Of a stretch of DNA of 17,769 nucleotides, positions 3,946 to 17,769 are shown piece after piece. Location of the stretch: IMG/VR virus record IMGVR_UViG_2571042372_000007. The stretch is one strand, 5' to 3'. The translations under genes were made by a program, and so were the position numbers. The notes below the pieces were generated by a model. The model was given only the letters and a program-made list of their open reading frames with translations. It was not told where the DNA came from and made no database searches. Each line of letters starts with the position of its first letter. Positions within the stretch are counted from its first letter, which is position 1. The stretch is from a virus (Duplodnaviria > Heunggongvirae > Uroviricota > Caudoviricetes).

Positions 3946-4143
3946 ATGTCAAATACGCTTATTCGTTTAACAGAAGTTCAGCGTAGAACTGGATATAGCA
4001 AGGCATGGATTTATCGCCTTATGGGGCAAGGTAAATTTCCTGCATCAGTTAAAATTGGCTCGCGAGCTATTGCTTTCGTTGAGAGTGAAATTGACGAGTG
4101 GATTAATCAGCGTATTGCGGAATCACGCGGAACAGCTACCTGA
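3946..4143 (+). CDS. alpA: AlpA-family transcriptional regulator (phage excisionase/activator-like HTH)
   Basis: 65-aa protein LIRLTEVQRRTGYSKAWIYRLMGQGKFPASVKIGSRAIAFVESEIDEWINQR matches the AlpA/Phage_AlpA pattern (HTH, then GxR...W.ESEIDEWI). Confidence 0.85.
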   Translation: MSNTLIRLTEVQRRTGYSKAWIYRLMGQGKFPASVKIGSRAIAFVESEIDEWINQRIAESRGTAT

Positions 4144-4220: not shown

Positions 4221-5021
4221 ATGAAATTTCCAAAAACGCCCGTACAGGGGCGGGGCTTCGTTCGGCCTGAAAACCAGAATCTGCAAAATTTCGGCGAAAT
4301 TATCCCGATTATTTCCGGCGTTATTGGCGGGAGTGAAACCACTATTGTTAGCGCCAGAGCGTTACATAAGGCGTTAGGTGTAGGGCGCGTTTTCCGTTCG
4401 TGGATCAAGGGGCGCATTGAAGAATATGGGTTCACGGAAGGCGTGGATTATGAGGTTGTTGAATATTTGAGCCGACCCGATCCGGTGAGCGCAAAATCTC
4501 GCCAGCAAACCGCTCTTGAGTACATCATCACAGTGAACATGGCGAAAGAACTGGCGATGGTCGAACGTACCGAACAGGGCCGCGCCGTTCGCCAGTACTT
4601 TATCAAATGCGAGGAGGAGCTACACAAGGTTGCGCCTGTTCGTTCCGCAGCGTTACGCCGGGAACTGAAAGCCCGTATCACAGTTGCCAGCTACTTTAAG
4701 CCAATGTGTGCCGCGCTGGAGGCGTACCGGGCTGAACTGGGTAAAAACACACTCCAGCACCACTACACCACGGAAGCGAACATGCTGGCGCGTATCGTGC
4801 TGGGTGGCATGACTGCAAAACAGTGGGCACTGGCGAACGGCATTACAGGCGAACCACGCGACCACATGAGCACGTTGCAGCTTGAGCACCTTTCTTACCT
4901 TGAGCAGAGCAATATCACGCTGATTGAGTTAGGCCAGGACTACCACCAGCGGAAGGCTGAATTAATTCGTCTTTCGCAGCGTTGGTTAGCCCGTCGTATG
5001 GAGGAAAACAGCCATGTGTAA
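4221..5021 (+). CDS. Phage antirepressor-family protein (ORF6N/Ant-like N-terminal domain)
   Basis: SD CAGGAG before ATG; motif SARALHKALGVGRVFRSWIKGRIEEYGFTEGVDYEV resembles the antirepressor N-terminal domain signature (LH..LGV...F..WI..RI..YGF.EG.DY). Assigned from memory of the family pattern. Confidence 0.55.
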   Translation: MKFPKTPVQGRGFVRPENQNLQNFGEIIPIISGVIGGSETTIVSARALHKALGVGRVFRSWIKGRIEEYGFTEGVDYEVVEYLSRPDPVSAKSRQQTALEYIITVNMAKELAMVERTEQGRAVRQYFIKCEEELHKVAPVRSAALRRELKARITVASYFKPMCAALEAYRAELGKNTLQHHYTTEANMLARIVLGGMTAKQWALANGITGEPRDHMSTLQLEHLSYLEQSNITLIELGQDYHQRKAELIRLSQRWLARRMEENSHV

Positions 5022-5480
5022 CGCTCTGACCGTTACAAAAAGAGAAAGCGCCCCGTTGCCGGAGCGCCTTTGTGAACGAATAGCCTACTGCGCCATATTG
5101 CTTACTGTCTACGAGGCAGATTATAGCGTTGTGGTCGCACAGAGTGAAGGCGCTGATCACCGTTACTACAGCACGCCAGAAATGCAGAATATTTTGCTGC
5201 AAAATGTCGTTGGTCACACTGTCCGGAAAGCAAAAAATTTTGCTGGTGGCGCGACTGATGCGATTTTGTCAGGTCGCCAGGTGCTGATCAATCTGATGTC
5301 TGATTTCGTTCTGGATAAAACAAAGGCGACCGCAGAGGGCCGCCAGTGGGAAAGCTACATACTTGAACGCATCGCCAACAATGCCAGATTTGCGGCTGGT
5401 GGGCAATGTGTCAGCTTTGCACCAATGACTCTATGTTTAACTGAGGGTCATTATGGTGAATATGCTGGCTTGCTGGTGGG
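5014..5480 (+). other. ORF translationally coupled to the antirepressor gene (ATGTGTAA overlap); 3' end undefined
   Basis: Starts MCNALTVTKRES at the same CATGTGTAA junction type seen at 6593, which argues the start is real. The frame has no stop until 6600 and turns Cys/Ser-rich and junk-like from about residue 155. End coordinate is approximate. Confidence 0.3.
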
Positions 5481-5738
5481 CTATTCCTGCTCTTTAACAT
5501 TGCCATGCCGCGATGTTTTCCAGGTATGCGACCCCATTTTTGTGTGCCTGTACTCTTTAAGGAATTTCTCAAGGACAAACGCACAGGGCGCGAATCTGTC
5601 TGACTCATGCTCGTACGCTATCTTTCTGCGCTGTCTTTTCCGTGCCGGTGATGGTGTATTGGTTGATTCTTTGTTGGTCATGGCGCTGCCCTGTAAAATA
5701 ATGCACCGTAGTTCCTCACACCACGGCACCTATAGTGG

Positions 5739-6044
5739 TTATTCCTGCTCTTTAGCTTTGCGCCGCTGGAGTTCTTCACGCGCGACGGTGACGAGTTGCC
5801 CGATTTCCTCGGCAGCTTTGACTCCGATTTTTTCCACCTGCGCTAGGGCATCGAGCGAAGAAACCAGGGGATTTTCTCCGCTTCCTTCTGCCTGGCGGCG
5901 GGCGATTTCACCGCGAACGGCTGTAATCACGAAAGCGGCTATTGTTTCCCCTTCCGTTTTCGAATTTTCCATTTCCTCGATTACATCATGGGGGAAGCGG
6001 ATATTTTTCATTTGCGATCTGCTGTTGATGTTTCCTGTTGCCAT
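5739..6044 (-). CDS. Small protein, possible ribbon-helix-helix-type regulator, divergent from the replication operon
   Basis: 101-aa minus-strand ORF MATGNINSRSQMKNIRFPHDVIEEMENSKTEGETIAAFVITAVRGEIARRQ; an N-terminal beta-strand-like segment followed by helices looks RHH-like. Weak SD; start may instead be the internal MKNIRF. Confidence 0.45.
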   Translation of the reverse strand: MATGNINSRSQMKNIRFPHDVIEEMENSKTEGETIAAFVITAVRGEIARRQAEGSGENPLVSSLDALAQVEKIGVKAAEEIGQLVTVAREELQRRKAKEQE

Positions 6045-6135
6045 CAGAATGTCCGGTTATTTTGAGGTGTGTACACATTACACCAAAAGGTGTGTTGATA
6101 AAACACTTGACACTGTAGCACACTTAAATTTAATT

Positions 6136-6168
6136 TGTATATACACCAATTGTTGTGGTGTATATACA
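6136..6168. promoter_or_regulatory. 13-bp perfect inverted repeat (TGTATATACACCA N7 TGGTGTATATACA) in the divergent intergenic region
   Basis: Arms at 6136-6148 and 6156-6168 are exact reverse complements; located between the minus-strand gene (ends 6044) and the plus-strand operon start (6235). Additional GTGT/ACAC dyads at 6065-6090. Confidence 0.6.
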
Positions 6169-6234
6169 GCAACGCCCCGCAGTGGTGGCACACATGCAGG
6201 GCGTCTAACCAAACCGTTAAACGAGGTAACGATT

Positions 6235-6600
6235 ATGGCTGGAACACAGCATACCCAAACTCACCCTAAATTTATATACACCTTCCTGGCGGTGCACCGT
6301 GATTGCATTGCTGACGGTAAAAACACTGTACACGTAGCCGCCGATACGCTGGTTGATGCCTGCGAGATGCTCAATGACATGGGCTATATCTCGGCAACAT
6401 GGAAAGGGCGCGAAGAAAACACGCTGTTTATTCAGAAATGCGAAAACAATTTTATCTGGCGTTTTATCGCCCTGAGTACGGCACAACCGCGCGTGATTCA
6501 CATCGAGGCCACCAGCGAACAGGAAGCACGCCAGCAATCTCCTGATGGCTGCGTGATGGTATTCGCTGCCCGTATTCGCCAGGAGGTGGAGCATGTGTAA
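6235..6600 (+). CDS. Hypothetical protein, 121 aa (first gene of the replication operon)
   Basis: ATG 6235 preceded by SD-like GAGGTAACG; the protein-like tail of the 528-aa track ORF (MAGTQHTQTHPKFIYTFLAVHRDC...); stop overlaps the next gene start (ATGTGTAA). Confidence 0.55.
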   Translation: MAGTQHTQTHPKFIYTFLAVHRDCIADGKNTVHVAADTLVDACEMLNDMGYISATWKGREENTLFIQKCENNFIWRFIALSTAQPRVIHIEATSEQEARQQSPDGCVMVFAARIRQEVEHV

Positions 6601-7598: not shown

Positions 7599-7889
7599 AT
7601 GAAAAAGAAATATTCTGGCTTTACTGCCAGCGGCCTCTCTCGGCCTGAAATCCGCCCCGGTGATATTTTCCGGGACACCAGACGCGGGGGACGGGTGGTT
7701 ATTCGTCACGTTACGCCAGGCAATATCACCTACCGCCGTGAGGCTTACGAATATGACTGCGTAATGCCGCGCCGTCAGTTTGAGCGTGATTTTATTCTGG
7801 TGGAAAACAAACAACAGGCAGTGGCGAGACGTGCAGCCACGAATATTAAAAAAATCCGGGCAATGTTGGTTGCGGGAGGTAAGAAGTGA
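7599..7889 (+). CDS. Hypothetical basic protein, 96 aa
   Basis: ORF immediately upstream of, and overlapping (GTGA), the primase/helicase gene start; Arg/Lys-rich. Confidence 0.5.
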   Translation: MKKKYSGFTASGLSRPEIRPGDIFRDTRRGGRVVIRHVTPGNITYRREAYEYDCVMPRRQFERDFILVENKQQAVARRAATNIKKIRAMLVAGGKK

Positions 7890-9691
7890 AAAACGCACCG
7901 AATTTAAAATATCAGCCGAAGGATAAATTCACCGAGGTAATCATTTTTGCCGGGACGGATGCTTACGCCCATGCTCAACACTGGATTGAAAGCGAAGGAC
8001 GAAAACACGGCGATAACGTGCCTCCTGTTTACCTGGGGCCAAAGCAACTGGCAGACCTGGCGAATATCCGCATTGTCGACGATGAACGCCGCTTTGCGCG
8101 TGTCTATCTCGCGGGGGAGATAGAGCCAATCCAGATCAATGCTATTGCTGAAAAGCTGGCGCTGGCTGGTGTACAGGACGCGAAATTATACAAAGGTATC
8201 ACCGACCGGGAGCCGGAAAACTGGCGCGACTACCTGCAACGGATCCGCGAACAGGCAGAGAGTGGGGAAGTTTCAGCGATGAAATTAGCCACAAAAAATA
8301 TTGACCTATCCAGGCCAGCACTAAATCAGATGGGAGCCAGCCAGAGAGGGGAAGTGTTACTTGAATATTATGGAAGAGCACTGGCTATAAATGATGATTC
8401 TGATGTAGTTCACCATTACAACGGAATTGTCTGGGTGCCTGTATCTGATAAGGAACTCCAGCGGTCTATGGCGAAGATTTTTATTGATGCTGGAATCAGT
8501 TATTCGCAAAACGCCATTAAATTTGCCGTAGACACAATGAAATTGAGCCTGCCTGTTATGGGCGGGGCAGACAGGAATCTTATTGGATTCAGTAACGGGG
8601 TATTTGATACCCGGACGGGAAATTTTCGGGAGCATAACAAAAATGACTGGTTGTTAAATGCCAGTGAATTACCGTTCAGCCCACCAGCAGAGGGGGAAAC
8701 GCTGGCAACACATGCGCCGAATTTCTGGAAGTGGCTGCGTCGTTCGGTGGCAGATAATGATCGTAAAGCTGATCGCGTACTGGCGGCATTATTCATGGTA
8801 CTGGCGAACCGGTACGACTGGCAGTTATTCCTTGAGGTAACAGGCCCAGGCGGAAGCGGTAAAAGTGTGATGGCTGAGATTTGTACCATGCTGGCGGGTA
8901 AGGCCAACACAGTATCGGCAAGCATGAAGGCTCTGGAAGACGCAAGGGAACGCGCGTTAGTAGTTGGCTTTTCGCTGATTATCATGCCGGATATGACTCG
9001 CTACGCTGGCGATGGTGCAGGAATTAAGGCAATTACTGGCGGCGACAAGGTGGCAATTGATCCGAAACATAAAGCCCCCTACTCCACACGTATTCCGGCA
9101 GTAGTGCTTGCGGTAAACAATAACGCCATGTCATTCAGTGACCGAAGCGGGGGGATCTCGCGTCGTAGGGTGATATTTAATTTCTCTGAGGTCGTACCGG
9201 AGAACGAACGCGATCCCATGCTGGCGGAAAAGATAGAAGGCGAACTGGCGGTAGTGATTCGCCATTTGCTAACACGATTTACCGACCAGGACGAAGCTAA
9301 AAGACTACTTTATGAGCAGCAAAAATCAGAAGAAGCGCTGTTGATAAAGCGCGAAGGTGATTCACTGGTGGACTTTTGCGGCTATCTGATGTCGTTGGTT
9401 AAATGTGAAGGAATGATGGTGGGCAATGCGGAAATAGTGCCATTTAGCCCGAGGCGATACCTGTATCATGCTTATTTAGCCTATATGTCAGCGCATGGCC
9501 TGGGAAAACCAGTATCACTGACACGCTTTGGTACTGATATGCCAGGAGCTATGGCGGAATACGGAAAGGAGTATAAGCGGGCTAAATGCACTAAAGGCCC
9601 GGATAAAGGGCGAGTGATAACAAATGTTCTGTTAGATGATGATGCTGATGGCTGGTTGCCAGCAGCTACAGGGATTAACGACAGAACATAA
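7886..9691 (+). CDS. Replication protein: P4-alpha-like primase/helicase C-terminal region (D5_N-like plus SF3 helicase)
   Basis: 601-aa ORF with Walker A VTGPGGSGKS and a downstream Walker-B-like acidic stretch (LIIMPD), typical of the phage/plasmid primase P4-family C-terminal domain; followed by an iteron-rich origin-like region. Confidence 0.85.
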   Translation: MKNAPNLKYQPKDKFTEVIIFAGTDAYAHAQHWIESEGRKHGDNVPPVYLGPKQLADLANIRIVDDERRFARVYLAGEIEPIQINAIAEKLALAGVQDAKLYKGITDREPENWRDYLQRIREQAESGEVSAMKLATKNIDLSRPALNQMGASQRGEVLLEYYGRALAINDDSDVVHHYNGIVWVPVSDKELQRSMAKIFIDAGISYSQNAIKFAVDTMKLSLPVMGGADRNLIGFSNGVFDTRTGNFREHNKNDWLLNASELPFSPPAEGETLATHAPNFWKWLRRSVADNDRKADRVLAALFMVLANRYDWQLFLEVTGPGGSGKSVMAEICTMLAGKANTVSASMKALEDARERALVVGFSLIIMPDMTRYAGDGAGIKAITGGDKVAIDPKHKAPYSTRIPAVVLAVNNNAMSFSDRSGGISRRRVIFNFSEVVPENERDPMLAEKIEGELAVVIRHLLTRFTDQDEAKRLLYEQQKSEEALLIKREGDSLVDFCGYLMSLVKCEGMMVGNAEIVPFSPRRYLYHAYLAYMSAHGLGKPVSLTRFGTDMPGAMAEYGKEYKRAKCTKGPDKGRVITNVLLDDDADGWLPAATGINDRT

Positions 9692-9718: not shown

Positions 9719-9918
9719 GGTAGACGGTTGGTAGACAGATTCACTTAACCCTCTACCAACCATCTACCAATTAATATTTTGAATTATAAAGATATTTTCA
9801 ATGTGGTAGAGAGGTAGACAGTTATTTCTATATTCCTAAACCACGGGGGGTATATAAAAAACAGATAGTTAAGGGGGCATTTTTTAAATTTCTCTTTTAA
9901 CTGTCTACACTGTCTACC
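9719..9918. repeat. Iteron cluster (GGTAGAC/GGTAGAG, 8 copies in both orientations) flanking an AT-rich spacer: candidate replication origin
   Basis: GGTAGAC at 9719 and 9730; inverted CTCTACC 9751 and TCTACC 9763; GGTAGAG 9805 and GGTAGAC 9813; inverted GTCTAC 9903 and TGTCTACC 9911. AT-rich stretch TTAATATTTTGAATTATAAAGATATTTTCAAT between the pairs. Confidence 0.65.
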
Positions 9919-9998
9919 ATTTAGTAAAAATCATTAATTATCAATGAACCGCCCCGGGAATCCTGGAGACTAAACTTCCTGAGAAAGAGGTAAACAGG

Positions 9999-10325
9999 AT
10001 GACTAAAAATACTCGTTTTTCCCCCGAAGTCCGTCAACGGGCAGTCCGTATGGTTCTGGAAAGTCAGAGCGAATATGACTCACAATGGGCGACAATTTGT
10101 TCCATTGCTCCAAAGATTGGCTGTACGCCGGAGACTCTGCGTGTCTGGGTTCGCCAGCATGAGCGGGATACCGGGGGCGGTGATGGAGGGCTCACCACCG
10201 CTGAACGTCAGCGTCTGAAAGAGCTGGAACGTGAAAATCGTGAACTGCGCCGCAGTAACGATATCCTTCGCCAGGCTTCCGCTTATTTTGCGAAGGCGGA
10301 GTTCGACCGCCTCTGGAAAAAATGA
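9999..10325 (+). CDS. IS3-family transposase OrfA (HTH and leucine-zipper region)
   Basis: 108 aa, [55 protein letters not shown]...[30 protein letters not shown]. Confidence 0.85.
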
Positions 10326-11212
10326 TGCCACTGCTGGATAAGCTGCGTGAGCAGTACGGGGTCGGACCGCTATGCAGCGAACTGCATATTGCCCCGTCAA
10401 CGTATTACCACTGTCAGCAACAGCGACATCATCCGGATAAACGCAGTGCCCGTGCGCAGCGCGATGACTGGCTGAAGAAAGAGATACAGCGCGTATACGA
10501 TGAAAATCACAAGGTATACGGTGTGCGTAAAGTCTGGCGTCAGTTGTTACGGGAAGGTATCAGAGTGGCCAGATGCACTGTGGCACGTCTCATGGCGGTT
10601 ATGGGACTTGCCGGTGTTCTCCGGGGTAAAAAGGTCCGTACGACCATCAGCCGGAAAGCCGTTGCCGCAGGCGACCGCGTAAACCGTCAGTTCGTGGCAG
10701 AACGACCTGACCAGCTGTGGGTGGCTGATTTTACTTACGTCAGCACATGGCGGGGCTTCGTCTATGTGGCGTTCATCATTGATGTGTTTGCCGGATACAT
10801 CGTGGGGTGGCGGGTCTCATCGTCCATGGAAACGACATTCGTGCTGGATGCACTGGAGCAGGCGTTATGGGCCCGTCGACCGTCCGGCACGGTCCATCAC
10901 AGTGATAAAGGTTCTCAGTATGTATCGCTGGCCTACACACAGCGGCTTAAGGAAGCCGGATTACTGGCATCAACAGGAAGTACAGGCGACTCGTATGACA
11001 ACGCGATGGCGGAGAGCATCAATGGTCTTTACAAAGCGGAGGTAATACACCGTAAGAGCTGGAAAAACCGTGCAGAAGTGGAACTGGCCACACTCACGTG
11101 GGTGGACTGGTATAACAATCGACGATTGCTGGAAAGGCTGGGCCATACTCCTCCGGCAGAAGCAGAAAAAGCTTATTATGCTTCCATCGGAAACGATGAT
11201 CTGGCAGCCTGA
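10322..11212 (+). CDS. IS3-family transposase OrfB (DDE catalytic domain), expressed as OrfAB by -1 frameshift
   Basis: 296 aa; overlaps orfA by ATGA; DDE-type integrase core (WVADFTYV..., [10 protein letters not shown]..., YDNAMAES...) characteristic of IS3 transposases. Confidence 0.85.
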
Positions 11213-11254
11213 GTTCACAGATAAAACACTCTCCAGGAAACCCGGGGCGGTTCA

Positions 11255-12119
11255 TGTTGTATCTGGAGTAAAACCTGATCCTGAGCTTGCTGCTTCAATT
11301 AAAACTGAAATTGACAGCTTAGATGCAAAAATCAACGAAGCCAAAGCTGATGCTCGTCAGTATAGTGGTGGTCTGATAAAGGTACTAAAATTATCTACTG
11401 TTGCCACTGAAGAGCAGACTATGGCAATGTTGCAGCAAAAGTACCTCACAGCCAAGTATGGCCTCGCTGAAGTTAAGCTGGCATCAGTACAAGATAATGA
11501 CGCAAAAAACAGTACTGAAACGGAAGTAACAGCCAAAAATTCCCAAGATCAACTTCCTTTACTCCCGCCAGCGGATGGTCCGTTTGGCTTAGAAGCCGGT
11601 CTTACACAGAAAAACATCGAAGATATGATCGGTGCTAAGCTCAAGCCACTACCAGACAGTGTGAATCTGTATACTTCTGATAAATTACCGAAGCAAAACG
11701 CAGATTTTGAAATGTATGGTTTGTTGATCTCCCCGAAAGCTGGTTTATGTCAAATACGGGCTTTAGGAAAAAATATTGATACTGATAGCTATGGATTGGC
11801 TCTTAAATCCAAGTTTGAAGAATTGAGTAATTCTTTAAGTTCTCTGTATGGAAAGGCTGATACTACAGACTTTTTGCTGGCTGGTTCAATTTGGAAAGAT
11901 CCTCAGGACTGGATGAGGGGGCTAAACAAAAAAGAACGCTTCTTATCTGCCACATGGAAGGGAACAAAAGAAATACCATTAAAAAACAATATTGATACTA
12001 TCTCTATTGAGGCCAGAGCGAACAATTCCACTCAGGGATATGTCTATCTGCAGTACTCATTTACAAATGACGAAATTTGTCAGGCAGAAATTGAAGGGGC
12101 GAAAAAAAGTTCCCTTTAA
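11255..12119 (+). pseudogene. Hypothetical protein, apparently 5'-truncated at the IS629-like right end (possible internal restart at ATG 11421)
   Basis: Reading frame is continuous from inside the IS (track ORF 11070..12119) with no start codon immediately after the IS end; first in-frame ATG after the IS is 11421. Followed by a strong terminator. Confidence 0.45.
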
Positions 12120-13221: not shown

Positions 13222-13320
13222 ATCAGTAAGGGGCGGTTATTGCCCCTTTCCTCCATACCCACAACGCATTCCCTTTCCGCATGAAATTATTTTTTATCGT
13301 ATATGCATGAGGTGAGCTAC

Positions 13321-13848
13321 ATGTTGATGAGTAAAGCCGAATACGCCAAATACAAAGGCGTAAGCCGCCAGACAGTTTACGACTGGCTCGAGAAAGGCGA
13401 AGTGGTCATGTCCGGTAAAAAAATTGATGTGGAAGCGACAGAGCAGCGGAACAGCCCACCAGCACAGGGGAAAGACACCATTTCTGAAATGTGGCCAGAA
13501 AGAACGCTGGAAATGACATGGGGCGAGTTCTGGAAAGCAGTTAAGGCCAGAGACGGTAAAATTCCTGCGCCAGTAACGGACGAGGGCATACAGCAGCGTG
13601 TGCTGTATGCAGCCGGGGAATTAGGCTGGGAAGTGCACTTTCTTGATGATGGTGCTATCTGTCTTGAGGATGATGAAGGGCAGCATTACTTTGAAAAATA
13701 CAATTTGCGAGGTAATGCCAGGCTGGCAATTCGTATGCTGCGTTGCGAACTCTGCTATGTTGCCAGCGATTGTCCCGATGAACAGGACACATGGAGTGAG
13801 GCAGGACTAAACGCCTTGGCTGAATGGGAAAAATCAGGCCATCAATGA
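13321..13848 (+). CDS. HTH-domain DNA-binding protein, about 176 aa
   Basis: SD GAGGTG 6 nt before ATG 13321; N-terminus MSKAEYAKYKGVSRQTVYDWLEKGEV is a canonical helix-turn-helix; lies directly upstream of the GTGTCAA repeat array. Confidence 0.6.
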   Translation: MLMSKAEYAKYKGVSRQTVYDWLEKGEVVMSGKKIDVEATEQRNSPPAQGKDTISEMWPERTLEMTWGEFWKAVKARDGKIPAPVTDEGIQQRVLYAAGELGWEVHFLDDGAICLEDDEGQHYFEKYNLRGNARLAIRMLRCELCYVASDCPDEQDTWSEAGLNALAEWEKSGHQ

Positions 13849-14670: not shown

Positions 14671-15897
14671 ATGATTGCAGGCGCGAAAAGAGGGAGAAAC
14701 GAACGCAAGGGGCTTCACTCTTGGCATCCATACTATGCGGGCTATTCAGAGTCATTTGTGGCTTCTGTTTTGCAGGCTGAAGGAGTTAAGTCGTCCGCTA
14801 CCGTTCTTGATCCTTGGATGGGAAGCGGTACCACTGGTATAGTTTGTCAAAAGCAAACCATAAAGTGTATTGGAGCAGATATTAATCCTGTAATGAGCTA
14901 TTTTGCTGCAGCCAAAAGTAGGGATAATATTTCAGCGCTGGATTATACCGGAGAGCAACTCCTGGAAAGGATACTGCTTTGCTTTAGAAAAAAAACAAAA
15001 GATATAACTGAGTCATCGAAGGGCTATCCACTTATTGAACAGTTACAAAAGTTTTATAAATGTATCTGTGATCAGTTTATGGATAAAGGACAAAATGATA
15101 TCGTAAATCCTTTAAAAGCATTTTATTGCAGTGTTTTATTTTATACTGTTCGCAATGTCCTTGATGTTAGGTCAACTTCAAATCCTACATGGATTTCTAA
15201 AAAAGTAGACTTTAATAATAAATTTGATATTTGTTTTGAATATAATAAAAATTTTAAAATTATGCGTGAGCAGTTAAGTGAATATTATGGCAGCGCTAAT
15301 GGGGGGGCATGTTACTCGATTTTAAACGTGGATAGTAAAAAATTAAATATTAAAAGTAACACAATTGATCTTGTTATTACATCGCCACCGTATTTAACAC
15401 GAATAGACTATGCCGTTTCTACTCGTCTTGAGTTGGAAATAATTTTAGGGAGTGAGGGATATAAGTCTCTTAGAAAGGAAATGATGGGCACGACGACTGT
15501 GCCTAAAGTTGCGGATGAAATTAATAAAAAATGGGGGCCATTGTGTATGGATGTTTTGTCATCGGTAACATCGCATACATCAAGAGCATCTGGAAGTTAT
15601 TACCTTAAAAATAAAATTAGATATTTTTCTGATGCGTATGAGTCATTAATGGAAATCTTTAGAGTTTTAAAGGTAGGTTGCTCTGGTTATTTTGTAATAC
15701 AAAATTCATATTATAAGGAAATAGAGATTCCGCTTTATGATATTTATTGTGAAATGGCGCTTTCTATTGGGTTTTCAGAAGCGAAATGTGTGAGAGAAGA
15801 TCAAGTTAAAGCAATATTTGGACAAATAAATACCAAGTCAAAAAATTATATTAAAGATAAAGTTTATTTTGAAAAAATCATAAGGATAACAAAATGA
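14671..15897 (+). CDS. SAM-dependent methyltransferase (putative DNA N6-adenine/N4-cytosine MTase), motif I before motif IV
   Basis: 408 aa; AdoMet-binding motif DPWMGSGTTG (about 14809-14838) and catalytic SPPY (about 15384-15395) in the ITSPPYLTRIDY context; AT-rich; stop overlaps the start of the next gene (ATGA). Confidence 0.75.
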   Translation: MIAGAKRGRNERKGLHSWHPYYAGYSESFVASVLQAEGVKSSATVLDPWMGSGTTGIVCQKQTIKCIGADINPVMSYFAAAKSRDNISALDYTGEQLLERILLCFRKKTKDITESSKGYPLIEQLQKFYKCICDQFMDKGQNDIVNPLKAFYCSVLFYTVRNVLDVRSTSNPTWISKKVDFNNKFDICFEYNKNFKIMREQLSEYYGSANGGACYSILNVDSKKLNIKSNTIDLVITSPPYLTRIDYAVSTRLELEIILGSEGYKSLRKEMMGTTTVPKVADEINKKWGPLCMDVLSSVTSHTSRASGSYYLKNKIRYFSDAYESLMEIFRVLKVGCSGYFVIQNSYYKEIEIPLYDIYCEMALSIGFSEAKCVREDQVKAIFGQINTKSKNYIKDKVYFEKIIRITK

Positions 15898-17006
15898 ATG
15901 ACGTAACTAAATTGCTATCTCAGATAGATGAAAAAAGAGATGAGGTAGTAACTGATTCTTATACCATATCATGGCGTGAAGTAATTAATCTATATAAAGA
16001 AAATGAGATAACCATTTCTCCAGACTACCAAAGGCTTTTTCGTTGGGATAACGCAAGACAAAGCCAATTTATCGAGTCATTACTTTTAAATATACCTACG
16101 CCAACACTTTTTTTCTACATTGATAATAATGGTAAGCAGGAGGTTATCGATGGATTGCAACGTGTGAGTACTATAATTAGATTTTTTTCAGAGGATATTT
16201 TTAATAAGGAAGAAATAGATAATGCAAAGAAACAAAACTCTGTAAATGATGTCCGTAATCCAACTGTTCTTGATGATGTGCCTATAATTACAGAATTAAA
16301 TGGATGGACTGCAAAAGGATTGCCGGACAAAGTTAGCCGAACTATAAAAAATGCGCGAGTAAATGTTGTTATTTTGGAGCAAGAAACAAAACCTGAAACT
16401 AAATATAATGTTTTTAAACGACTGAATAGGTCTGGTGTTCGTTTGAGTGACCAGGAAATACGTAATTGCATGGCTAGATTAGCAGGGAATGAATTTGCAG
16501 ATCGCTTACGTAAGATGGCCGAAATTGATGGTATTGTTCAAGCTCTTGGAATAAATGAAGATGGCCAAAAATCTCAAGGTGTTGAGGAAGCTTTGCTACG
16601 AGTTATGGCATCTTTGACTTATGCGGATAAATTTAGCCATAGTGTAACTGACTTTTTGGATGAATTTATGTTCTACGCGGCAGAACATAATGTTATTGAT
16701 ATTAATTTTGAATTAAAAATAAAAAGAACTTTTGATTTGATAAATATTGCTGGTTTATCTGGTAAAGCATTTAAATTTAGAAAGGATGGTGCTCCAAGTG
16801 GCCCGTTTAGTACTAATTTATTAGATGTTGTTGCTGTTGGTATTTTTAGTAATGTAGATAATTTAACACCTGCTGAGGTGGCGAAAAGATTTGATTATTT
16901 AATGGATGGTGAGATCAAAGAATTAAGAGCTTGTACTGGTTCTGGATCTAATACTAAAGCCAAATTAGAGAAAAGAATCGCTCTTGGGAAGAAGGTGTTT
17001 GGATAA
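15894..17006 (+). CDS. DUF262 (ParB/Srx-like NTPase, GmrS-type N-terminal domain) protein
   Basis: 370 aa; signature SPDYQRLFRW (about 16017-16046), IDGLQR (about 16144-16161, canonical DGQQR) and FKRLNRSGVRLS; no recognisable fused nuclease (DUF1524/HNH) domain. Confidence 0.75.
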   Translation: MNDVTKLLSQIDEKRDEVVTDSYTISWREVINLYKENEITISPDYQRLFRWDNARQSQFIESLLLNIPTPTLFFYIDNNGKQEVIDGLQRVSTIIRFFSEDIFNKEEIDNAKKQNSVNDVRNPTVLDDVPIITELNGWTAKGLPDKVSRTIKNARVNVVILEQETKPETKYNVFKRLNRSGVRLSDQEIRNCMARLAGNEFADRLRKMAEIDGIVQALGINEDGQKSQGVEEALLRVMASLTYADKFSHSVTDFLDEFMFYAAEHNVIDINFELKIKRTFDLINIAGLSGKAFKFRKDGAPSGPFSTNLLDVVAVGIFSNVDNLTPAEVAKRFDYLMDGEIKELRACTGSGSNTKAKLEKRIALGKKVFG

Positions 17007-17007
17007 A

Positions 17008-17769
17008 ATGAGAATATCAGATTTCGATGATTTCAAGGTGATGTTGGAAAAGACGAAAAATGAAAGTCTTGGATTCCTTGAGAGCATAAAGTCTATTAAT
17101 GAGTTTATGTCGAGATCAGGTGATAAAGACAAGGAGGATATGTTTAGAATAATATCGGTCCCAATGATTTATTCTTCTTGGGAGGGTTTTTTTACTGAAA
17201 CAATGTCAGTTTGCTTAAATACATTGAAACTCTCAGATAGAGAGGCATTTAGATACTCTGCAGAAATTCGAGCACTTTGGTTGCAACGAGAACCATTTTA
17301 TAGCAAGTATGTAGATATGATAAAAAATATTTATGATGCTGACTCACACCGAAGCATTGTCCATAATGGCGCCCAAATAAAAAAGAAAGTTACGAAGGGG
17401 GCGTTTAAACTAACAAGTGAGGTAATTCAACACATTGACAGGTTTAATAAATCCACATTATCAGATTGCGATGTTTCTGAATTAGTTATGACATTTTCCA
17501 ATGTGAATGAAATGGTTGTCAAGGTGAATTTCGATGCTATAGGTTTGGATTATTCATCACTTGATTTATCGCAACTAGGTGAGGTTGTTGGCCTTAGAAA
17601 TTCTTTGGGACATGGGGAGTTTAAAAGTAGTGTTAACCCTAGGAAATTTAATTCAATAATTGTGTATGTGGAAAATCTGATCATCGATTTGAATCAATGT
17701 GCTATAACGTGGTTGGATAAATTAGAAGATGAAATAACTAAGCCTGAAGATAATGAGACTATTCAGTGA
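17008..17769 (+). CDS. Hypothetical protein with HEPN-like Rx4H motif (candidate RNase effector)
   Basis: Preferred start ATG 17008, one nt after the upstream stop (the track's 16984 is a TTG); 253 aa; C-terminal LRNSLGHGEF (about 17593-17622) fits the HEPN R-x4-6-H active-site motif; complete, stop at 17767-17769. Confidence 0.55.
   Translation: MRISDFDDFKVMLEKTKNESLGFLESIKSINEFMSRSGDKDKEDMFRIISVPMIYSSWEGFFTETMSVCLNTLKLSDREAFRYSAEIRALWLQREPFYSKYVDMIKNIYDADSHRSIVHNGAQIKKKVTKGAFKLTSEVIQHIDRFNKSTLSDCDVSELVMTFSNVNEMVVKVNFDAIGLDYSSLDLSQLGEVVGLRNSLGHGEFKSSVNPRKFNSIIVYVENLIIDLNQCAITWLDKLEDEITKPEDNETIQ

Follow-up and report, generated by a model that had tools for sequence, protein, structure and literature searches.

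A probable Rep-dependent replication origin, truncated by IS629, in a Gram-negative PICI of Escherichia coli

Genes of the island and the replication protein

The window, by which we mean the whole analysed stretch of 17,769 nucleotides (IMG/VR virus record IMGVR_UViG_2571042372_000007), starts in proA and continues with a tRNA-Thr gene (1369-1444) and a tyrosine integrase gene on the plus strand (1611-2825). AlpA is encoded at 3946-4143 (PF05930, E = 2.4e-19) and is followed by an AntA protein, an Icd-like region, a DUF4222 protein and a protein of 601 residues, in this order and all on the plus strand. Gram-negative PICIs are defined by int, alpA and pri-rep in one orientation (PMC6092414). 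The window shows this arrangement, with no tail or lysis genes. No structural phage genes were found within the window, and the right end of the island lies beyond it. The genes at 14671-17769 encode a type II-like methyltransferase, an NsnA-like DUF262/GmrSD_N protein (PADLOC NsnA, E = 1.2e-55) and a RiboL-PSP HEPN protein whose gene extends past the window end; they are probably defence cargo at the 3' end of the island.

Some further features of the island were recorded in passing. An int-alpA RNA motif (Rfam RF02996, 46.8 bits) lies at 2870-2937, between the integrase gene and the next open reading frame. An unusually long open reading frame of 528 codons spans 5014-6600, and its only match is Icd-like and C-terminal; the annotation of relatives shows here a short Icd-like gene plus YlcI/YnfO genes that are short and on the minus strand. 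The 181-residue protein encoded at 13303-13848 combines an N-terminal helix-turn-helix of the excisionase type with a weak match to a terminase small-subunit PHROG, and may possibly be a packaging-redirection factor.

The gene for the 601-residue protein, here called pri-rep and its product Rep, occupies 7886-9691 on the plus strand and was assigned as an initiator and SF3 helicase from the open reading frame and its domain matches. These comprise D5_N (residues 156-285), a DUF5906 P-loop domain (319-427) and a Pox_D5/winged-helix domain (490-567); the protein scores below the cut-off of TIGR01613. The helicase core matched SaPI5 PriRep (7OLA) with E = 8.8e-10. The initial annotation had named the gene a primase/helicase gene, and the helicase half of this name is borne out, but no primase catalytic domain was detectable: residues 1-155 yielded no primase domain at Pfam E <= 10. 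Residues 1-133 (7886-8284) matched just the unannotated phrog_2850 and had no Pfam match. As a separate observation, this N-terminal domain of about 130 residues is common to three unrelated types of initiator, namely D5/SF3, DUF927 and RepA-family helicases, with copies in the window (7886-8284), in locus L005 (5001-5390; 96% identical to the window copy) and in locus L007 (5000-5390).

The C-terminus of the replication protein had been likened to that of P4 alpha, and this likeness was confirmed by homology. Codons 491-592 (9356-9661, plus strand) encode a winged-helix domain of the P4 alpha origin-binding type (phmmer against PDB 1KA8, E = 6.4e-19), and the C-terminal domains of Rep and P4 alpha are 45.5% identical (tblastn).

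The iteron array and its IS629 junction

An array of short repeats occupies 9719-9918, directly downstream of pri-rep as previously noted, its first copy starting 27 bp past the stop codon (9689-9691). Pattern searches placed iterons 1 and 2 (both GGTAGAC) at 9719-9725 and 9730-9736 on the plus strand, iterons 3 (GGTAGAG) and 4 (GGTAGAT) at 9751-9757 and 9762-9768 on the minus strand, iterons 5 (GGTAGAG) and 6 (GGTAGAC) at 9805-9811 and 9813-9819 on the plus strand, and iterons 7 (TGTAGAC) and 8 (GGTAGAC) at 9903-9909 and 9912-9918 on the minus strand. Eight copies of GGTAGA(C/G) had been reported from inspection of the sequence. Their positions and order, two direct, two inverted, two direct and two inverted, are correct, but only six of the eight are exact, copies 4 and 7 each departing from the motif. 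The spacing within the four pairs is 11, 11, 8 and 9 bp. Between the divergent pairs lies a 36-bp spacer (S1, 9769-9804) with a GC content of 11%, in agreement with the AT-rich stretch claimed to be flanked by the copies. The central spacer (9820-9902, 83 bp) contains two G-runs (CCACGGGGGG and AAGGGGGC) and A/T tracts and is kept in close relatives. A remnant of a second AT-rich spacer (S2, 9919-9944) completes the region.

The possibility that the array is a chance or low-complexity repeat without function is practically negligible. In its favour we can cite the AT-rich context and nothing else. Exact matches to GGTAGAS number 8 across the whole window, where 1.63 are expected; none of 200 shuffles reached 8, and six of these matches sit within the 200-bp array. 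The hexamer GGTAGA occurs seven times in 9719-9918 and four times across the other 17.5 kb (Poisson P about 8e-14). We find a segment of 347 bp spanning the array in 36 complete E. coli genomes, and the core of the array again after a Rep that is only 44% identical (see below), which further argues against chance.

The repeat unit is not the heptamer but a sequence of 11 bp, GGTAGACAGTT. From the 12 copies present in an intact relative we derived the consensus (T)GGTAGAC(A)GTT, in which positions 2-6 and 9 are invariant and position 1 is a G in 11 of 12 copies. Footprinting with six close relatives (89-100% identity), sequences too similar for this purpose, showed no significant excess conservation of iteron columns (13 of 84 variable, versus 65 of 303 in the rest of the gap; p = 0.28).

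The least stable 25-mer of the origin is found within S1 at 9770-9794 (dG -22.5, versus a locus mean of -33.0 with a standard deviation of 3.6), and S1 is the likely site of first melting. The core around this spacer, minus-strand iterons followed by AT-rich DNA and a plus-strand iteron, recurs in origins of the CFT073 type and the P4 type. The elements common to all origin types, which are a pair of inverted iterons, an AT-rich stretch of about 36 bp and then direct iterons, are whole in the window at 9751-9819. Rfam had no match within the array or the central spacer.

The right-hand border of the array is set by an insertion sequence. Comparison with locus L001 (strain 537-20, NZ_CP091534), which is identical over the array stretch, identified a copy of IS629 (IS3 family) on the plus strand at 9945-11254, with 1310 bp between inverted repeats and no target duplication. 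The element is complete, with perfect terminal repeats and an ALIL frameshift pseudoknot at 10280-10396. It takes the place of about 1.36 kb of L001 (approximately 10347-11702), and the missing target duplication indicates a deletion event. The lost segment comprises four distal iterons, a proQ-like gene, perC and the 5' end of the following gene. Seven complete E. coli genomes, one of them from an APEC O2:K1:H4 strain, carry this very junction; it occurs in the strains FDAARGOS_1300, FDAARGOS_1301, FDAARGOS_1302 and APEC E19019.

Intact versions of the origin are available in L001 and in L002, which is 93% identical. In these, the gap between pri and the next gene measures 383-384 bp (L001 10093-10475) and contains four extra iterons, arranged as two direct pairs around a 57-bp AT-rich spacer, giving 12 iterons in the orientation ++--++--++++ with three AT-rich spacers. 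Downstream of the array come a ProQ/FinO-family gene, whose ribosome-binding site borders directly on the last iteron pair, and then perC. Two sequences in the AT-rich spacers of the intact origin match the IHF consensus WATCAANNNNTTR (L001 10340-10352 and 10419-10431), and locus-wide the count of such matches is not significant, the same number being reached in 9 of 100 shuffles. Where S2 of the intact relatives runs on into an IHF-consensus match and the four further iterons, the window has the IS629 junction, which destroys the first IHF-consensus match (window approximately 9939-9951). The origin in the window is thus incomplete, its last third having been removed by the IS629 insertion.

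This raises the question of whether the array is a dead relic, a former origin whose eight remaining iterons no longer replicate the island, leaving it as a fixed chromosomal carrier of cargo. The loss or disruption of four of 12 iterons, two AT-rich spacers and an IHF-consensus match is consistent with this reading, as are the deletion indicated by the missing target duplication, the fixation of the junction in 7 complete genomes and the disappearance of perC and the proQ-like gene. We nevertheless consider it rather unlikely. The shared core at 9751-9819 is whole and includes the origin's least stable stretch, and the int, alpA and pri open reading frames are full length. Furthermore, the conserved feature of SaPI origins, at least two iterons on each side of an AT-rich region and in opposite orientation (PMC9371898), is present in the window.

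Covariation of iterons with the Rep tail

About 90 related loci were compared overall. A scan of IMG/VR gave 80 loci, and 74 of these were scored for the C-terminal tail of Rep and for the iterons. Tail class and iteron class agreed in 74 of 74 loci, bar one stray GTGAAC in one locus of the GGTAGA class. Tails of the form KGPDKGR[VT]I[TS]N were accompanied by 5-11 copies of GGTAGA per locus and, with that one exception, by no GTGAAC; tails of the form KRKTKHGLRSN were accompanied by 7-10 copies of GTGAAC and no GGTAGA. In the other six of the 80 loci, the tail KGPDKGRTISN occurred with GTAGACA iterons. Close relationship among many of the 74 loci reduces the number of independent covariation events to about 5-6.

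Further pairings were found outside these classes. The tail RTTAGVRSN goes with AATGAACAG / AATGAACAGTT (locus L068), and KSTKG[NH]MRSN goes with GGTGGAGAG, twice independently, in L076 and in the unrelated contig L102. In Buttiauxella, Xenorhabdus and Thorsellia, a P4-like tail is present together with GGTGAAC. A contig profile search, made with an alignment of three sequences and poor N-terminal patterns, returned one locus, from E. ruysiae. On the P4-like contig L100, which carries Psu genes, a P4-like tail (RTKTGIQTN) was observed beside different repeats, GGTGAAGGA (2023-2500), a mismatch indicating that the tail motif alone does not fix every iteron position.

The comparison of individual proteins narrows the covarying region to the end of Rep. 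The Pri proteins of L006, L008 and L011 are 98% identical to that of the window over residues 230-470 and 87% identical over residues 471-562, falling to about 25-26% over residues 563-601, and the iterons of these loci are of the P4 type, GGTGAACAGTT. Locus L005 encodes a DUF927-type Rep, the first 129 residues of which are 96% identical to the window protein, and its iterons are CGGGATAT. Despite these different iterons, its DUF4222, ProQ and PerC proteins are 92%, 93% and 100% identical, respectively, to those of the window type. In locus L007, a helicase of the RepA type is accompanied by AGTGGGGA repeats. Four iteron types occur with AlpA proteins that are 92-98% identical. Over the approximately 90 loci, the repeat sequence thus tracks the last approximately 40 residues of Rep and not its N-terminus, nor AlpA, DUF4222, ProQ or PerC.

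Because the iterons adjoin the 3' end of the Rep gene, some of this covariation may be due to linkage. Linkage alone is argued against by the concerted change of all copies between the origins of L006 and L068: 9-10 of the 10 copies differ at iteron positions 1-2, compared with 0-2 at positions 3-9, in origins whose spacers are still alignable (45 of 199 columns differ).

The segment of Rep that tracks the repeat sequence by covariation corresponds to codons 564-583 (KRAKCTKGPDKGRVITNVLL; 9575-9634, plus strand), and we infer that it forms the DNA-reading wing. The term is used on topological grounds because the AlphaFold2 models of the origin-binding domain were poor, with a pLDDT of 38 for the single sequence and of 57 for an alignment of 38 sequences (below 50 at model residues 133-144). 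As Yeo and co-workers reportedly described in 2002, the P4 domain resembles RFX1, which reads DNA by its wing. An RFX1-like mode of reading agrees with the location of the specificity segment beyond the last helix.

Other candidates for the iteron-binding protein, namely AlpA, DUF4222, ProQ, PerC and the Rep N-terminus, were rejected, since near-identical copies of them occur with different iterons. A role of the repeats as integrase arm sites was also rejected, because 7 kb separate the array from the attachment site and because the repeats vary in step with Rep, not with other proteins of the island.

Related origins and a proposed mechanism of initiation

In PICIs, the origin lies immediately 3' of pri-rep and consists of iteron sets flanking an AT-rich region (PMC6092414). 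The window shows the same layout, with iterons reading ++-- and ++ on the two sides of 9769-9804, followed by a -- pair. For the E. coli element EcCICFT073, a plasmid carrying pri and ori was maintained, and plasmids with pri and a deleted ori, or with a deleted pri and ori, were not (PMC6092414; Fillol-Salom et al. 2018). Rep-dependent replication in cis has been demonstrated for EcCICFT073 alone (PMC6092414), and the tested fragment has the GGTAGA core. A primer listed in the supplement of that study contains GGTAGACAGGGTAGACAG. In the CFT073 locus (L003), 11 copies of GGTAGA(C/T/G) lie in the 288-bp gap after pri, and 13 such hexamers occur in the 18 kb that were fetched. The reverse primer of the delta-ori construct maps to L003 9980-10000 and ends 4 bp past the pri stop codon, so that this construct lacked every one of the 11 iterons.

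Rep of the window and Pri-Rep of EcCICFT073 are 44% identical over their full length (E = 1e-175), and the presence of GGTAGA repeats right after both genes, at the position expected of a PICI origin, upholds the earlier view that the locus follows the P4/PICI arrangement. The two elements also share the island family and the order int, alpA, Icd-like, DUF4222, pri-rep, origin, perC. Origins of both types lie 3' of rep and have 11-12 short iterons of mixed orientation around AT-rich DNA, with GGTAGA as the core. They differ in the iteron flanks (GGTAGACAGTT in the window, GGTAGA[C/T]A.. in EcCICFT073), in iteron orientation (++--++--++++ in the window type, --+---++-++ in EcCICFT073), in a 5-residue insertion (TKGPD) in the putative wing of the window Rep, in the downstream genes (proQ-like in the window type, a hypothetical gene and SSB in EcCICFT073) and in the attachment site (tRNA-Thr/proA in the window, roxA-phoQ in EcCICFT073). 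The IS629 truncation is a feature of the window origin and not of EcCICFT073. As to orientation more generally, the loci L003, L006, L009, L035, L040 and L068 have different iterons and a near-equal pattern, --+--(-)++(+)-++, with 11-12 copies, compared with ++--++--++++ in the window type.

The cis requirement in EcCICFT073 also bears on the idea that the array serves chiefly as a transcriptional operator, with a regulator, or Rep itself, acting there on expression of the proQ-perC or late operon downstream. Such a role would suit the last iteron pair of the intact relatives, adjoining as it does the ribosome-binding site of the next gene, and the direct pair with which CFT073-type and P4-type origins end, about 45-50 bp before the next gene. 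It would also suit a weak promoter-like match that overlaps iterons 5 and 6, and the result of a terminator scan, which found none after pri. Promoter-like matches are not above chance, however (3, versus a shuffle expectation of 1.8), and the iteron type is independent of the downstream genes, of AlpA and of PerC. Since, in addition, the homologous CFT073 region is required in cis for Rep-dependent plasmid maintenance (PMC6092414), we regard a mainly transcriptional function as improbable; a secondary regulatory role beside origin function may exist.

The window locus also resembles satellite P4. In the P4 record, crr contains ten type I repeats in mixed orientation and begins 46 bp after the alpha stop codon, so that P4 has, like the window, a cluster just after the rep gene, related iterons and a homologous C-terminal origin-binding domain. 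P4 alpha (777 residues) has an N-terminal primase domain, unlike the window Rep (601 residues). The P4 type I iteron, TGTTCACC, was not found: neither GTGAAC nor GTTCAC is present in the window array. A specificity distinct from that of P4 had been proposed on account of the different motif. The sequences do differ, but by less than had been assumed, since GGTAGACA and GGTGAACA, the latter being the reverse complement of the P4 iteron, differ at two of eight positions.

These likenesses suggest a further reading, in which the array corresponds to P4 crr, an auxiliary element in cis that depends on a second, distant cluster as the true origin. The position after the Rep gene, the mixed-orientation iterons and the origin-binding domain homologous to that of P4 alpha would all agree with such an arrangement. 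A bipartite origin of this kind was not apparent, because the window holds no second cluster, only four scattered GGTAGA hexamers outside 9719-9918. The P4 genes sid, psu, delta and cnr were not detected among the Pfam matches in the window either, and in EcCICFT073 pri and the adjacent region alone are sufficient (PMC6092414). We therefore consider the crr reading very improbable.

The Rep proteins of SaPIs belong to the SF3 helicases and load themselves; by a C-terminal winged helix they bind iterons just downstream of rep, and their binding and melting of the origin are independent of ATP (PMC9371898). SaPIbov1, SaPI1 and SaPI5 resemble the window locus in having 6-12 iterons downstream of rep, split around an AT-rich centre, and a homologous helicase core. 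They differ in their iterons, which are 5-6 nt long and of unrelated sequence, as well as in host clade and transcriptional layout, and SaPI5 PriRep has a primase domain, of which none was found in the window Rep. Iteron plasmids such as pSC101, R6K, RK2 and P1 likewise have repeated initiator sites beside an AT-rich unwinding element, and perhaps an IHF-like site. Their WH1-WH2 Rep proteins act on direct repeats and recruit DnaA and DnaB, unlike the helicase initiator and the mixed-orientation iterons of the window. A DnaA-dependent iteron plasmid origin was rejected because the initiator is an SF3 helicase and the origin contains no exact match to the DnaA box.

We conclude, with a probability of roughly 85%, that the array is the Rep-dependent origin of a Gram-negative PICI in E. 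coli, integrated at tRNA-Thr beside proA and truncated by IS629. The conclusion is based on the array and its statistics, its position, the type of island, the domain homologies, the core shared with CFT073 and the covariation. By homology with the characterized elements and similarity of layout, Rep would most likely bind, melt and fire the window allele as follows. Induction of the island by a helper phage would lead to production of the 601-residue Pri-Rep, whose C-terminal winged helix of the P4 alpha type would bind the 11-bp iterons. Paired sites one helical turn apart on either side of the 36-bp spacer would load Rep oligomers, the spacer would melt, and the SF3 helicase part of Rep would load itself and unwind the DNA, after which host or helper enzymes would copy the island. 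The ancestral origin had 12 iterons; IS629 took the distal four together with the proQ-like gene and perC, leaving the proximal two-thirds including the core.

The origin class has already been described, and the window origin is a further allele of it; the covariation of tail and iterons is a refinement and not a new mechanism. Assignment to this established class, together with the shared GGTAGA core, places the window origin in the same specificity group as the tested origin of the model element EcCICFT073. In practice, it predicts which satellites could share or compete for initiators, and natural tail-swap variants could be used for the engineering of orthogonal PICI replicons. In one E. 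coli lineage, the IS629 event damaged both the replication and the regulatory module of the satellite, and the island in the window may be immobilised.

More tentatively, and with somewhat less than even confidence, we suggest that a small specificity code may link the 11-bp iterons of P4-alpha-type initiators to the last approximately 40 residues of these proteins. In this code, GGTGAACAG, GGTAGACAG, AATGAACAG and GGTGGAGAG would each have a tail motif of their own, and enterobacterial satellites might exchange it as a cassette of Rep tail plus origin. The GGTAGA core is common to two Rep lineages, those of the window and of CFT073, that are just 44% identical, so that PICIs unrelated to each other might activate one another's origins, or compete for them, when present in the same cell. 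Through the distal iteron pairs lost from the window, Rep may also control proQ-perC.

A mosaic arrangement was observed in locus L014 (NZ_CP122801, 2396-3474). There, a CFT073-like pri with its own GGTAGA origin of about 12 iterons is followed by a fragment of a RepA-family gene, some 90 bp from the 3' end of a window-type pri and, as a second origin, a complete one of the window type, and the locus thus carries two origins with the same core in tandem.
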